DNA of 64,000 nucleotides from contig CANRMT010000001.1 in NCBI GenBank assembly GCA_947631815.1, positions 3,401 through 67,400 of the forward strand, read 5' to 3'. Positions within the stretch are counted from its first letter, which is position 1, and every line of letters begins with the position of its first letter. The notes under the pieces are model-generated. The model ran no database searches. It was not told the DNA's origin and saw only the letters and a program-made list of their open reading frames with translations. Origin of the DNA: an uncultured Eisenbergiella sp. (GTDB lineage: Bacteria; Bacillota; Clostridia; Lachnospirales; Lachnospiraceae). Position numbers and translations under genes: made by a program. Shown here piece after piece: positions 45,308 through 49,865 of the stretch.

Positions 45308-45664
45308 TTATGCGATCTTGGTCTTCGCCAGCTCGGCCAGCGACGCAAAGCCTTCCGCATCGTTCACCGCCATCTCGGCGAGCATCTTTCTGTTGATCTC
45401 CACATCGGCCAGCTTCAGACCGTACATGAACTTGGAATAGGACAGGCCGTTGATCCTGGCCGCCGCGTTGATACGGGCGATCCAGAGCTGCCTCATCTGG
45501 CGCTTTCTTTCCTTCCGGCCGACATAGGAAGCGGCCATCGCTCTCATCACATACTGCTTCGCGATCCTGTACTGTGTTCTCTTCGCGCCCTTAAAGCCCT
45601 TTGCGAGTTTCAATACTCTATTATGTTTCTTTCTGGCATTCATGCCACCCTTAACTCTCGCCAT
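45308..45664 (-). CDS. rplT: 50S ribosomal protein L20
   Basis: MARVKGG...ARKKH...[11 protein letters not shown]...[10 protein letters not shown]. Confidence 0.98.
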
Positions 45665-45685: not shown

Positions 45686-45883
45686 TTATAAATACGGCAA
45701 AATCTTCTTCATATTCTTAACATTGGCAGCGTCCGTAATCGTCGCTTTCCTGAGATTTCTCTTTCTCTTCGTGGATTTCTTCGTTAAGATATGGCTCTTA
45801 TAAGCTTTATTCCTCTTCAGCTTACCGTTACCGGTCAGTTTGAACCGTTTTGCAGCGGACCTGCTTGTCTTCATTTTAGGCAT
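45686..45883 (-). CDS. rpmI: 50S ribosomal protein L35
   Basis: [15 protein letters not shown]...[12 protein letters not shown]. Confidence 0.98.
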
Positions 45884-45951
45884 GTCTGTGATCTCCTCCT
45901 GTTACAATCCTTCAATCCGTTTTCGCCATGATGCGATGCCGCCGTCAGCGG

Positions 45952-46458
45952 TCAGCGCTTCTCCGTCAAAAACATTATCATGCTCCTGCCTTCCACCTTC
46001 GGGGGCTTCTCCATCACGGAAATATCCGAAAGCATCTGAGCAAAGTCATCCAGAATGTGCTTGCTGGTTGACATATGCGCCATTTCACGACCGCGGAAAC
46101 GCAGCGTAACCTTCACGCGGTTCCCCTTCTCCAGGAACTTCCGTGCCGCGTTCGCCTTGGTGTTCAAATCATTCGTATCAATGTTGGGAGACATCCGGAT
46201 CTCTTTGATCTCGATGGTCTTCTGCTTCTTTCTCGCATCCTTCTCCTTGCGCGCAAGCTCATATCTGTACTTTCCGTAATCCACGATCTTGCACACGGGA
46301 GGCTTGGCGGTGGGGGCGATCTTCACCAGATCCAGGCCCGCTTCCTCCGCAAGCTTCAGCGCTTCGCGCGCCGGCATGATCCCGAGCTGCTGCCCATTCT
46401 CTCCGATCAGACGGACCTCGCGGTCTCTGATCTGTTCGTTGATAAATAATTCGCTAAT
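45952..46458 (-). CDS. infC: Translation initiation factor IF-3 (ATT start)
   Basis: INEQIR...GLDLV...PPVCKIVDYGKY...KVTLRFRGRE; SD GGAGGG lies 7 nt before an in-frame ATT at 46458. Confidence 0.95.
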   Translation of the reverse strand: MSELFINEQIRDREVRLIGENGQQLGIMPAREALKLAEEAGLDLVKIAPTAKPPVCKIVDYGKYRYELARKEKDARKKQKTIEIKEIRMSPNIDTNDLNTKANAARKFLEKGNRVKVTLRFRGREMAHMSTSKHILDDFAQMLSDISVMEKPPKVEGRSMIMFLTEKR

Positions 46459-46490
46459 GGCTTTTCCCTCCATAAGATGAAATAGAACAT

Positions 46491-46645
46491 AAAAAAACGG
46501 ATACCCGCAGATATCCACTCCCGATCCTCAGCTCATGCCGCACGCTGCGCGAACCCGTCCCAATACTGTATCCGCCCGCACGGTGAACCAAAAATATGAA
46601 CGCCTGTCAGCCCGATCGCCACAGGGTGAGAGTGAAACTCTGCTT
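46491..46645 (-). ncRNA. L20 leader (infC-rpmI-rplT attenuator)
   Basis: AAGCAGAG...TCTCACCCTG...CAGG...GAGTGGA pattern and terminator ggatat-ctgcgg-gtatcc-TTTTTTT upstream of infC, as in Firmicute L20 leaders. Confidence 0.75.
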
Positions 46646-46671
46646 GTATGCCGACGCACAGTGTGCGCCAG

Positions 46672-46744
46672 TCGGAGTGACAAGACTTGAACTTGCGGCC
46701 TCTTCGTCCCTAACGAAGCGCTCTACCACCTGAGCCACACCCCG
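46672..46744 (-). tRNA. tRNA-Pro(AGG)
   Basis: CGGGGTG-TG-GCTC-AGGTGGTA-GAGC-G-CTTCG-TTAGGGA-CGAAG-AGGCC-GCAAG-TTCAAGT-CTTGT-CACTCCG-A; C1:G72 and A73 as in tRNA-Pro; loop positions 34-36 read AGG. Confidence 0.92.
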
Positions 46745-46769
46745 ATGTCCGCTCAACCGGACATTTGAT

Positions 46770-46798
46770 ATCTTACCCCAAACTCCTATATAAGTCAA
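46770..46798 (-). promoter_or_regulatory. Sigma-A promoter of tRNA-Pro and the infC operon
   Basis: TTGACT-17 nt-TAAGAT with an AT-rich upstream segment. Confidence 0.75.
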
Positions 46799-46830
46799 TA
46801 CCCAATTTTCAAAAACTTCGGCTATGTAAC

Positions 46831-46889
46831 GCCCCCGCCCAGAGCCCGACCGGCGCTGGCTTCCCGGCGGGCGGGCCCTGGGCGGGGGC
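46831..46889. terminator. Long GC hairpin downstream of the DUF1540 gene
   Basis: gcccccgcccag/ctgggcgggggc outer stem with inner gcccg/cgggc pairing; no clear U-tract. Confidence 0.45.
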
Positions 46890-46893
46890 CGGT

Positions 46894-47211
46894 TCAGCGC
46901 TCCTTAAATGTCGCGCATTCGGTCTCCCGGCAGTCCCGGGCGCCGCCGCCCCGGATGTCCACGCGATCCGCATAACACCGATAGTTGGTATTATAGGTGC
47001 ACTTCACCGCTTCGCAGTCGATGCTGATGGTGTTGCAGGGATGGTCGTCCATGGAATTGCGGGCCCGCCCCTCGGGCTCATCCCGAAAGCTCTCGCAGCA
47101 GGTCTGCCCGCTGCTGTCGGCCCGCATGCCGCCCACCATGATGTCGCCCTTACAGCAGCAGTCGCTGTTGTTGTACAGGCAGTTTTCCACTCCGCATCTC
47201 AATTCCGCCAT
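46894..47211 (-). CDS. DUF1540-like Cys-rich protein (two repeats)
   Basis: LRCGVENCLYNNSDCCCKGDIMV...TCCESF and IDCEAVKCTYNTNYRCYADRVDI...TECATF; SD aaggagg. Confidence 0.8.
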   Translation of the reverse strand: MAELRCGVENCLYNNSDCCCKGDIMVGGMRADSSGQTCCESFRDEPEGRARNSMDDHPCNTISIDCEAVKCTYNTNYRCYADRVDIRGGGARDCRETECATFKER

Positions 47212-47282
47212 ACTGTCCTCCTTTTGCCGTCTTTCGCGGCAGGTTTCCATTCCGCAGGGCATTTGCCCGCGGTCTCATTCCC

Positions 47283-47311
47283 TAGTCTGGACAGAGAACG
47301 GAAAAATATTC
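47283..47311 (-). promoter_or_regulatory. Putative forespore sigma-G-type promoter of the DUF1540 gene
   Basis: GAATA-17 nt-CAGACTA vs the B. subtilis sigma-G consensus GHATR-17/18-CATAHTA. Confidence 0.5.
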
Positions 47312-47370
47312 GTTTCCCGGGCCGCCGTTCGCTTCTCATCCGGCGATGCGGCTGCCAGGATCCTTGAAAC

Positions 47371-49296
47371 TCAGGCCTCCTTTGCCTGACGGTTTATCTT
47401 GGCGTCGATCTCTTCCCGGACCGCCTGGATGAATTCCTCCAGCGTCTTCGCGCCCTCGTCTCCGGCGAACCGGCTCCTGACGGCCACCGTGCCGCTCTCT
47501 TCTTCCTTCTGGCCTACCACGAGCATATAAGGCACCCTGGCGTTCTGGGCCTCCCGGATCTTGTAGCCGATCTTTTCGGAACGCAGATCCAGCTCCGCGC
47601 GGATCCCCGCATCGTCCAGCTTTTCCTTCACGCTCCTGGCATAGTCCATGTATTTGTCGGAGATCGGCAGCACGCGGACCTGCACCGGCGCCAGCCAGGT
47701 CGGGAACGCGCCCGCAAAGTGCTCGATCAGAATGCCGATGAACCGCTCGATGGAGCCGAACACCACGCGATGGATCATGATGGGCCTGTGCTTTTCGCCG
47801 TCCGGCCCGATGTATTCCAGCCCGAACCGCTGCGGGAGCTGGAAATCCAGCTGGATCGTGCCGCACTGCCAGGTCCTGCCGATGCAGTCCACCAGATGGA
47901 AGTCGATCTTGGGACCGTAGAACGCGCCGTCCCCCTCGTTGATCACATAATCCAGGCCCAGCTCCTCCAGAGCGCCTTTCAGCGCCGAGGTCGCCATCTC
48001 CCAATCCTCGTCGCTGCCCATGGAATCCTCCGGCCTGGTGGAAAGCTCTACGTGATACGGGAAGCCAAACAGGGAATAGACCTCGTCGATCAGCGCCACG
48101 ACGCCCTTGATCTCGTCCTTGATCTGCTCCGGCGTCATGAAGATGTGGGCATCGTCCTGCGTAAAGCAGCGCACCCGCATCAGGCCGTGAAGCTGGCCGG
48201 ACTTCTCATGACGGTGCACGATCCCCAGCTCTCCCATGCGCATGGGCAGATCCCGGTAGGAACGGGCCTCGGACGCATAGACCAGCACGCCGCCGGGGCA
48301 GTTCATCGGCTTGATCGCGTAATCCTGCTCATCGATCACGGTCGTGTACATGTTGTTTTTATAATGATCCCAATGACCGGACGTCTCCCAGAGACTGCGG
48401 TTCAGGATGATGGGCGTGGAGATCTCCACGTAGCCCGCCCGTTTGTGGAGCTGTCTCCAATATTCCAGAAGCGTGTTTTTCAAAACCATGCCCTTCGGCA
48501 GATAGAACGGGAAGCCGGGGCCTGCCTCGTGCATCATGAACAGGCCGAGCTCCTTGCCCAGCTTTCTGTGGTCGCGCTTTTTGGCCTCCTCCATCATGGT
48601 GATATAGCCGTCCAGCTCTTCTTTTTTGGAAAATGCGGTGGCGTACAGCCTGGTGAGCATCTTGTTGTGCTCATCGCCTCTCCAGTACGCGCCCGCAAGG
48701 CTCATGATCTTAAAGGCCTTCCCCACTTCCTTCGTACTCTTCAGATGCGGTCCGGCGCACAGATCCACGAATTCGCCCTGGCTGTAGAAACTGATCTCGG
48801 CGTCCTCGGGCAGATCCTCGATCAACTCCACCTTGTAGGGCTCATTGCGCTCCTTCATATAGGCGATGGCATCCTCTCTGGATTTGGTGAACCGCTCGAT
48901 CTTCAGATCCTCCTTGATGATCTTGCGCATCTCCGCCTCGATCTTTTCAAAATCGTCGCTCGTCAGAGGGCTTTCAAAATCTATATCGTAGTAAAAACCG
49001 TCCGCAATGGAAGGCCCGATGGCCAGCTTCACATTGGGATACAGGCGCTTCACCGCCTGGGCCATCACATGGCTGGCCGTATGCCGCAGCACGGAAAGCC
49101 CCTCCGCATCCTTCGCGGTGAGGATGCTGACGCTGGCGTCCTTCGACACCACGGTGCGCAGATCCACGACCTCGCCGTCGACCTCTCCGGCACAGGCCGC
49201 CCTGGCCAGGCCCTCGCTGATGTCCTTCGCGATCTCCAGGACCGACATCGGGTTCCCGTATTCCTTTACGGAACCGTCCTTCAACGTAATCTTCAT
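47371..49296 (-). CDS. thrS: Threonine--tRNA ligase
   Basis: TGS domain, LRHTASHVMAQAV, DLCAGPH, RDHRKLG, KPMNCPG, RVRCFTQDDAH, FYGPKID, HRVVFGSIERF. Confidence 0.97.
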   Translation of the reverse strand: MKITLKDGSVKEYGNPMSVLEIAKDISEGLARAACAGEVDGEVVDLRTVVSKDASVSILTAKDAEGLSVLRHTASHVMAQAVKRLYPNVKLAIGPSIADGFYYDIDFESPLTSDDFEKIEAEMRKIIKEDLKIERFTKSREDAIAYMKERNEPYKVELIEDLPEDAEISFYSQGEFVDLCAGPHLKSTKEVGKAFKIMSLAGAYWRGDEHNKMLTRLYATAFSKKEELDGYITMMEEAKKRDHRKLGKELGLFMMHEAGPGFPFYLPKGMVLKNTLLEYWRQLHKRAGYVEISTPIILNRSLWETSGHWDHYKNNMYTTVIDEQDYAIKPMNCPGGVLVYASEARSYRDLPMRMGELGIVHRHEKSGQLHGLMRVRCFTQDDAHIFMTPEQIKDEIKGVVALIDEVYSLFGFPYHVELSTRPEDSMGSDEDWEMATSALKGALEELGLDYVINEGDGAFYGPKIDFHLVDCIGRTWQCGTIQLDFQLPQRFGLEYIGPDGEKHRPIMIHRVVFGSIERFIGILIEHFAGAFPTWLAPVQVRVLPISDKYMDYARSVKEKLDDAGIRAELDLRSEKIGYKIREAQNARVPYMLVVGQKEEESGTVAVRSRFAGDEGAKTLEEFIQAVREEIDAKINRQAKEA

Positions 49297-49503: not shown

Positions 49504-49865
49504 AAAAAAACGTCCCGCATGATACCTCTCCTGCACGGCGGCGCATCAAAACGCCGTCCCGCTCAAAGGGATCATGTCTGGGACGTATCGGCCGCCGCGG
49601 ACACAATGCCCGCAGCACAGCGGTCATATATCCGCTGCCATTATCTACGCGGTTCCACCCAGTTTGCTTCCGCCCGGCGGCCGCCGGACAAAAACCACTT
49701 CGTTGGAGATGATAACGGGATCACCGGGCCGGATTGGGGCCGCTCGGAGCTGGTCTTCGGTATGAGTCCCTGTCAGAACGCTTTCAGCACTGCGCCGTCC
49801 CCGGCGCGGCGTCCCTCTCTGGCACAGCGGCCCATCCTACTGGTCTCGTCAACGCATTCTCTGTA
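49504..49865 (-). ncRNA. T-box riboswitch (Thr) upstream of thrS
   Basis: T-box AAACTGGGTGGAACCGCG (49648-49665), AGAGA and GCTG boxes, ACC specifier (49759-49761), terminator 49504-49586 ending in T7. Confidence 0.9.

Follow-up and report, generated by a model that had tools for sequence, protein, structure and literature searches.

Results

A tRNA-Pro(AGG) gene upstream of infC

The window analyzed here is a 64,000-nucleotide stretch of one contig from an uncultured Eisenbergiella sp. of the family Lachnospiraceae. ARAGORN calls three tRNA genes in it, among them a tRNA-Pro with anticodon agg on the minus strand (46671–46744). The Rfam model RF00005 matches 46672–46744 of that strand over its full length (model positions 1–71; score 61.1 bits, gathering threshold 29; E = 8.7e-11) and flags no nonstandard pair. 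The coordinates given in a preliminary description of this DNA are exact, and the strand, which it had left unstated, is minus. The features of the locus are collected in Table 1.

Table 1. Features of the tRNA-Pro(AGG) locus and of the adjoining infC operon (window coordinates)
Feature	Position	Strand	Basis or remark
GC-rich hairpin followed by a T-run, 3' of the upstream 122-aa Cys-rich gene	46809–46893	−	Sequence
Sigma-70-type promoter, TTGACT-17-TAAGAT	46770–46798	−	Consensus scan
Short 5' leader from promoter to tRNA (...ATCAAATGTCCGGTTGAGCGGACAT)	46745–46769	−	Motif TGTCCGGTTGAG kept in most species
tRNA-Pro(AGG), 73 nt	46672–46744	−	ARAGORN, Rfam RF00005, cross-species identity
Anticodon loop U32-U33-A34-G35-G36-G37-A38	46707–46713	−	Sequence
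Anticodon AGG	A34 46711, G35 46710, G36 46709	−	Sequence
infC leader, L20-leader-like attenuator	46483–46651	−	Weak L20_leader match; conserved in G014
Terminator-like hairpin in infC leader	46522–46493	−	Hairpin scan
infC (IF3), probable ATT start after GGAGGG	45952–46458	−	ORF and translation
rpmI	45686–45883	−	ORF and translation
rplT	45308–45664	−	ORF and translation

The gene fits a bacterial elongator tRNA, with a cloverleaf of 7/4/5/5-bp stems and the conserved D- and T-loop residues, and its RNA sequence is CGGGGUGUGGCUCAGGUGGUAGAGCGCUUCGUUAGGGACGAAGAGGCCGCAAGUUCAAGUCUUGUCACUCCGA. The acceptor stem contains C1–G72 and a single G4–U69 pair, the discriminator is A73, and CCA is not encoded. 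The anticodon arm reads CUUCG-UUAGGGA-CGAAG on the minus strand. All elements of the tRNA-Pro identity set are present (G35, G36, C1–G72, A73, and G37, the site of m1G37). The intact cloverleaf, the A34 anticodon, and the proline identity elements noted in the preliminary description are thus borne out, the first by the ARAGORN call and the full-model match, the second by the ARAGORN call and the sequence, and the third by C1–G72, A73, G35, and G36. As judged from these residues, the tRNA carries the bacterial ProRS identity set (G72, A73, G35, and G36), and it is predicted to be aminoacylated with proline.

The promoter is the sole promoter-like site on the minus strand within 45800–47400 and lies ~25 nt 5' of the tRNA. 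In other species, we found 48 loci with an identical tRNA and sufficient upstream flank, representing 36 distinct upstream sequences. Most of these loci have an A/T-rich stretch, TTGACW, a 17-nt spacer, TAnnAT, and a leader with TGTCCGGTTGAG, and in most a strong intrinsic terminator follows directly 3' of the tRNA. The unit of promoter, leader, and tRNA (~145 nt) is 85–91% identical between species whatever the neighboring genes. That the tRNA sits behind a good promoter, as had been proposed, is therefore supported by the conservation of TTGACT-17-TAAGAT together with the tRNA.

In the window genome, no terminator was found after the tRNA and the sequence continues into the infC leader, so the tRNA is probably the first gene of a transcript running into the infC-rpmI-rplT leader, and co-transcription of tRNA-Pro(AGG) with infC is probable on this arrangement. 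The Rfam L20_leader model aligns with the infC leader over its full length but scores below its gathering score (19.4 bits against 58.7; E = 0.26); a diverged L20 attenuator missed by the current Rfam model may exist in Lachnospiraceae. The location upstream of the infC operon was correctly described, as the open reading frames confirm, but the position is recent and shared with one sister species only. The same arrangement was seen in one other record, a rabbit-gut metagenome-assembled genome (MAG) also named uncultured Eisenbergiella sp. (L065; ~90% nucleotide identity). In ten other members of the genus, tRNA-Pro(AGG) has a different location, which for some is close to Val-CAC/Ala-CGC, Gly-CCC, or Trp tRNAs.

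Another genus member, G014, has the same gene order (721-aa gene, 122-aa gene, infC, rpmI, and rplT), an infC gene 94% identical to that of the window, and a conserved infC leader without a tRNA at the syntenic site. The place of the tRNA is taken there by a different stretch of ~100 nt with a TTGACA hexamer, a possible promoter. The hairpin at 46809–46893, probably the terminator of the 122-aa Cys-rich gene, is missing from the syntenic G014 site in the alignment and forms the upstream edge of the insert specific to the window genome; a weak Rfam mir-455 match on this hairpin is spurious. Comparison of these loci indicates that the tRNA and its promoter relocated recently to the head of the infC operon, because the infC arrangement is common only to one sister rabbit-gut species and the gene stands alone with its terminator in others.

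The tRNA is not always single copy. Two AGG tRNA genes lie ~110 nt apart in G015 (contig C29:183068–183249) and in L088, two lie ~320 nt apart in G111, and two are on different contigs in G124. On contig C45 of G003, an exact second copy of the 3'-terminal 25 nt of the AGG tRNA lies at 49514–49538, 41 kb from the full gene at 90502–90574; partial copies of this kind are typically left by elements that integrate into tRNA genes.

Conservation and spread of the AGG anticodon arm

A copy of the gene with 100% identity over all 73 bases is present in 18 of the 19 genomes from other species of the genus, and also in one other genus. Relatives with CGG or GGG at this place, which had been named as the sign of a sequencing error or a private mutation, are not what this comparison returned. 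A search of named species-representative genomes for the exact 23-nt anticodon arm gave 71 stretches, which contain 25 different full-length tRNAs. Most are Lachnospiraceae MAGs from the gut of horse, rabbit, goat, sheep, chicken, and human, and among the cultured bacteria with the arm are Gallintestinimicrobium propionicum and Lachnospiraceae bacterium XBB2008. Erysipelotrichaceae (Solobacterium, Bulleidia, and Lactimicrobium massiliense) and one Oscillospiraceae MAG have it as well. Transfer of a Lachnospiraceae tRNA gene to the Erysipelotrichaceae was considered and rejected, as the remainder of those tRNAs differs throughout.

We then take the family as a whole, using one genome per genus at ≥90% completeness and a pattern that fixes only the arm flanks and the loop UUAGGGA. 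This pattern matches in 38 of 151 Lachnospiraceae genera, with at least 17 different, fully complementary anticodon stems; the reversed control pattern gives zero matches in the same 151 genera. An A34 tRNA of this kind had been regarded as rare in bacteria. That does not hold for Lachnospiraceae, in which AGG is present in these 38 genera and always replaces GGG.

The proline isoacceptor set

When position 34 is allowed to be A or G and positions 32 and 38 are left free, the pattern matches in 84 of the 151 genera. A34 is present in 38 of them and G34 in 46, and none of the 84 has both in the same genome. AGG was not found in the sampled genomes of other families of the order, which carry GGG, CGG, and/or UGG. 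Within the genus, the usual proline set is AGG, CGG, and UGG. tRNA-Pro(AGG) therefore has the properties of a lineage-fixed non-Arg A34 tRNA: it is genome-encoded and conserved, the ANN anticodon replaces GNN, and UNN and CNN are kept in the genus. The AGG tRNA substitutes for the GGG (CCY) decoder only. Superwobble reading of all CCN codons, one of two possibilities raised in the preliminary description, is unsupported because tRNA-Pro(UGG) is kept in the genome and both UGG and CGG in the genus. The genus member G014 has neither an AGG nor a GGG match; considered as a natural knockout, it offers 18 proline codons, too few to compare.

The window genome assembly (2.75 Mb in 176 contigs, 95% complete, 42 tRNAs) holds AGG, one good UGG, and one doubtful UGG call by ARAGORN. 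No tRNA-Pro(CGG) was found in these 176 contigs, and this absence more probably reflects a gap in the assembly than loss of the gene, because CCG makes up 52% of the proline codons of the genome. The doubtful Pro(tgg) call lies on another contig of the genome (C60:1832–1907, minus strand) beside tRNA-Thr(GGU). It has a poor anticodon stem with G·G and C·A mismatches, G1–C72, discriminator U, and an encoded CCA, and so lacks proline identity; the gene may have decayed or may encode an atypical tRNA.

One loop on several tRNA bodies

The loop of the A34 tRNAs is UUAGGGA in 38 of 38 AGG genera, even with positions 32 and 38 free in the search. Loops of G34 tRNAs are CUGGGGG in most cases or AUGGGGU, and those of the Lachnospiraceae CGG and UGG proline tRNAs are UUCGGGA and UUUGGGA/U, respectively. 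The plain G34A derivative of a GGG-type loop, CUAGGGG, was never seen among the 38 AGG genera.

Bodies were compared over the 56 nt outside the 17-nt anticodon arm. There the window tRNA is identical to the GGG tRNA of another genus (L220), and the difference is confined to the arm (CTAGA-CTGGGGG-TCTAG in the L220 GGG tRNA versus CTTCG-TTAGGGA-CGAAG in the window). Two other AGG tRNAs have bodies identical to CGG tRNAs, one is a single base from the CGG tRNA of its own genome, and one is a single change from UGG tRNAs. The existence of GGG-, CGG-, and UGG-type bodies implies that AGG arose at least three times or that the arm was passed between isoacceptors. On the TadA tree, which stands in roughly for a species tree, the AGG/GGG state requires 10 changes compared with 20–29 in the ten label shuffles listed.

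Proline codon usage in AGG and GGG genera

Codons of the window genome were counted from self-trained gene calls. As shares of all proline codons, CCU rises from 0.09 genome-wide to 0.26 in 33 highly expressed genes and CCC from 0.37 to 0.45, CCA stays at 0.02 in both sets, and CCG falls from 0.52 to 0.27. CCY thus makes up 72% of proline codons in the 33 highly expressed genes compared with 46% genome-wide, so that the codons of tRNA-Pro(AGG) are the favored ones in highly expressed genes. Arg-ICG shows the same pattern, with CGY at 85% in highly expressed genes and 44% genome-wide.

Across the family, we compared ~3,400 codons of ribosomal-protein clusters from ten AGG genera plus the window genome with those from ten GGG genera, taking medians at GC3 0.36–0.56; the AGG genera in this comparison carry several different arms. 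The median CCC share of proline codons is 0.40 in AGG genera versus 0.03 in GGG genera (p = 0.0018), and the median CCA share is 0.02 versus 0.27 (p = 0.00016), both p values coming from Mann-Whitney tests that ignore phylogeny. No comparable difference between AGG and GGG genera was found in the other seven four-fold boxes, and CGA (~0.02) and CUA (~0.00) are avoided in both groups alike. In nine of the ten GGG genera (L330–L339), CCC accounts for 12 or fewer of ~110 ribosomal-protein proline codons, and CCU, CCA, and CCG are used instead; this near-avoidance of CCC makes the GGG tRNA look like a minor decoder there.

The ratio CCU/(CCU + CCC) is 0.34–0.63 in AGG genera, like that of the G34 boxes Thr, Ser, and Gly, and is higher in the Arg-ICG box (0.58–0.80). 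A preference for C-ending codons equal to or above that for U-ending ones is what inosine, a G-like base, would be expected to give. Two AT-rich AGG genera depart from the pattern and have CCA at ~0.5 and CCC at ~0.01. We accordingly gave less weight to CCA avoidance as a signature of I:A interference, as these two genera use CCA freely.

TadA and the other A34 tRNAs

The window genome has one TadA, a 225-aa open reading frame on another contig (C9). It scores 158.9 bits against NF008113 (cut-off 150), has intact HAE and PCxxC motifs, and aligns without gaps with S. aureus TadA (2B3J; E = 5e-46) apart from short N- and C-terminal extensions. Inspection of tadA, which had been suggested as a check, thus yielded an intact gene, yet no residue specific to AGG genera. 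None is exclusive to the 37 AGG genera compared with 41 GGG genera (the best column has G in 35 of 37 versus 18 of 41), and in an alignment within the order no residue separates relatives with AGG from those without it. Lachnospiraceae TadA has Q in the motif PCQMC, and its R107-equivalent residue is M. At the place of E. coli D108, every sampled member of the order has N, so that this residue is uninformative for AGG; the evolution of DNA-editing TadA began with D108N.

The A34 tRNAs of the window genome belong to exactly the three four-fold boxes with G36, and their loops are CUACGGA (Arg-ACG), CUAAGGA (Leu-AAG), and UUAGGGA (Pro-AGG). Set against the TadA consensus Y32 U33 A34 C/A35 G36 R37 A38, UUAGGGA fits at six of seven positions and deviates at G35. 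The tRNA-Leu(AAG) gene lies outside the window (C93:8472–8557, minus strand). No Leu-GAG or Leu-UAG gene was found in the window genome assembly, and CUA makes up ~0.5% of its CUN codons.

Leu-AAG is present in all six sampled Lachnospiraceae genera and in two other families of the order. It is older than Pro-AGG in the order, as G030, from another family, has Leu-AAG together with Pro-GGG. In Erysipelotrichaceae with Pro(AGG), 12 of 12 genomes carry Leu(GAG), which implies that AGG arises without a TadA already broadened for Leu. A stepwise scheme in which Pro-AGG follows Leu-AAG is therefore not general.

Discussion

The tRNA-Pro(AGG) of the window is, we hold with high confidence, a functional tRNA that has replaced tRNA-Pro(GGG). 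What happens to its A34 is a separate matter, on which the observations can be read in more than one way; the choice posed in the preliminary description, between inosine from a TadA of expanded range and an unmodified A34, still frames it correctly.

We lean toward the reading that TadA converts A34 of tRNA-Pro(AGG) to inosine, in preference to an unmodified A34. tRNA-Pro(AGG), transcribed from its own conserved promoter in the window genome, now reads CCC and CCU in place of tRNA-Pro(GGG). TadA would deaminate A34, one enzyme serving Arg-ACG, Leu-AAG, and Pro-AGG, the three putative substrates sharing the loop Y32-U33-A34-N35-G36-G37-A38. The resulting IGG anticodon would pair well with CCC and CCU, and such pairing would explain the heavy use of CCC in the most expressed genes of AGG genera. 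Consistent with deamination, the loop conforms to the TadA consensus everywhere except position 35, even where it sits on a GGG-type body, the three A34 tRNAs make up exactly the ANG set, and C is preferred over U in a G-like manner. GGG has been replaced repeatedly in genomes that favor C-ending codons, and CCC surges in their most expressed genes. Against it, the only bases at position 35 known to be accepted by bacterial TadA are C and A, both amino bases, TadA does not co-vary with AGG, and Erysipelotrichaceae combine Pro(AGG) with Leu(GAG). UUAGGGA is also the loop type of the CGG and UGG tRNAs of the family, so it may reflect descent or decoding tuning rather than TadA recognition. The two AT-rich AGG genera count against inosine as well, showing that CCA avoidance is not general.

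The fuller proposal is that a homodimeric TadA accepts G35 in Lachnospiraceae and, independently, in Erysipelotrichaceae, that Pro-AGG is read as IGG, and that proline has been recoded from CCA/CCG to CCC/CCU. We regard the case for and against this proposal as evenly balanced.

The same functional, GGG-replacing tRNA could instead keep an unmodified A34, with TadA serving Arg (and Leu) only, an alternative that we find somewhat improbable but take seriously. CCU would be read by a Watson-Crick A:U pair, and CCC by an A:C wobble backed by the two strong G:C pairs of the proline box, on the model of the Salmonella proL G34A mutant. The unmodified A34 tRNA-Pro of Salmonella reads CCC almost like G34 and without fitness cost (PMC3711424), and the corresponding tRNA is present, unmodified, at wild-type levels in E. 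coli (preprint 10.64898/2026.05.15.725136). The natural A34 tRNAs with G35 of O. oeni (Thr and Ser) are unmodified (PMC8072771). An unmodified A34 would make enzyme co-evolution unnecessary and would fit repeated independent origins; in line with this, no TadA substitution tracks AGG, and AGG occurs without Leu(AAG) in Erysipelotrichaceae. The pattern of changes is less easily accommodated. A direct G34A change in a GGG-type loop (CUAGGGG) is absent from all 38 genera, and the window lineage exchanged its whole arm on a molecule whose other 56 nt are identical to a GGG tRNA. In mid-GC AGG genera, CCC equals or exceeds CCU in the most expressed genes, having gone from 3% to 40%, and a CCC share of 40% is hard to square with a decoder whose sole Watson-Crick partner is U. 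Nor is there an obvious gain from changing G34 to A34 in a genome with a 4:1 excess of CCC over CCU.

Another modification of A34, or a partial deamination in which a mixed pool of A34 and I34 decodes, we consider quite unlikely. TadA edits mRNA sites partially (PMC11472039), and a poor G35 substrate could be incompletely edited; however, in S. pyogenes TadA edits its known tRNA substrates to completion (PMC11472039). It is exceedingly improbable that the feature stems from faulty sequencing or assembly, is a mutation private to this genome, or belongs to a GGG or CGG tRNA decaying into a pseudogene. The genome is a draft of 176 contigs with an incomplete set of 42 tRNA genes and lacks tRNA-Pro(CGG), but the identity of the sequence in 18 further species genomes of the genus and across many named records, the compensatory stem changes across 38 genera, the conserved promoter and terminators, the full Rfam score, and a codon-usage shift specific to the proline box all stand against it, and we reject error and pseudogene readings on the strength of the cross-species identity, the complementary stems, and the conserved promoter.

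E. coli TadA is strict for UACG. That of S. pyogenes also edits Leu-AAG, with the consensus YUAMGRA, and in the complex with S. aureus TadA, C35 forms a single hydrogen bond (PMC11472039). O. oeni has I34 in Arg and Leu tRNAs and none in Thr-AGU or Ser-AGA (PMC8072771), and Ser-AGA and Thr-AGU have no inosine in E. coli. The Pro-AGG made by G34A stays unmodified in E. coli (preprint 10.64898/2026.05.15.725136), and in Salmonella it reads CCC almost as well as G34 (PMC3711424; Chen et al. 2002 cited there). Among the bacterial A34 tRNAs with G35 tested in the studies cited here (Pro-AGG, Ser-AGA, and Thr-AGU), none has inosine, which weighs for an unmodified A34. Reviews treat anticodons starting with A, other than Arg-ACG, as near-absent from bacteria (PMC8007984), and in a 2026 GtRNAdb survey of 4,047 bacterial genomes only Leu-AAG and Thr-AGU were genus-fixed, all in genomes of 60–70% AT (preprint 10.64898/2026.05.15.725136). 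We found no paper on a lineage-fixed bacterial Pro-AGG in a search that lay outside the Rafels-Ybern lists of extra Firmicutes A34 tRNAs.

The closest parallel is Leu-AAG (IAG) of Lactobacillales with a broadened TadA (Oenococcus oeni, Streptococcus pyogenes, and oral streptococci). Both are non-Arg A34 tRNAs of a four-fold box that replace the G34 isoacceptor lineage-wide, have G36, G37, and A38 in the loop, and are accompanied by synonymous codon reprogramming (PMC13249217, PMC11472039); Katanski et al. (2026) linked Leu-IAG to genome-wide recoding of leucine (PMC13249217). Leu-AAG has A35 and is edited to inosine, whereas Pro-AGG has G35 and its inosine is putative. The host genome of Pro-AGG is also GC-rich (58%), unlike the survey's A34 genera of 60–70% AT.

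The proL G34A mutants of Salmonella and E. coli share both the anticodon and the codon box of Pro-AGG and show that an AGG proline tRNA can mature, be charged, be used, and read CCC (PMC3711424; preprint 10.64898/2026.05.15.725136). In these mutants a single base of the native GGG loop was changed in the laboratory, whereas the natural Pro-AGG always has U32 and A38, is fixed, has evolved repeatedly, and goes with heavy CCC use. The unmodified Thr(AGU) and Ser(AGA) of Mollicutes and O. oeni resemble Pro-AGG in being natural A34 tRNAs with G35 that replace G34 (PMC8007984, PMC8072771). Unlike Pro-AGG, they are without G36, one of the core determinants for TadA, and their host genomes are AT-rich with a predominance of U-ending codons.

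Eukaryotic cytosolic tRNA-Pro(AGG), converted to IGG by ADAT2/ADAT3, is likewise an A34 proline tRNA that replaces G34. It decodes CCU and CCC (and CCA), and C-ending codons can be preferred. The ADAT2/ADAT3 heterodimer does not read the loop sequence (PMC9643335), in contrast to the window genome, in which only a homodimer-type TadA is present.

Overall, Pro-AGG represents a third lineage-fixed non-Arg A34 case beside Leu-AAG and Thr-AGU. Roughly one in four genera of this dominant gut family has it, GC-rich genomes included; it has been gained several times and always excludes GGG. What is new is how often it occurs in Lachnospiraceae, that it arose repeatedly with the loop unchanged, and that the recoding is specific to proline. 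In practice, codon-optimization tables for gut Clostridia and tRNA-based annotation should not presume that CCC is rare. The family offers a clean natural system in which to ask if G35 can come within the range of a bacterial TadA and in what way a single wobble base brings about synonymous recoding. If a G35-accepting TadA is indeed at work, Pro-AGG would be the first bacterial I34 proline tRNA, and these bacteria would have a three-substrate TadA that covers every four-fold box with a G36 anticodon, a natural intermediate toward the multi-substrate ADAT of eukaryotes.
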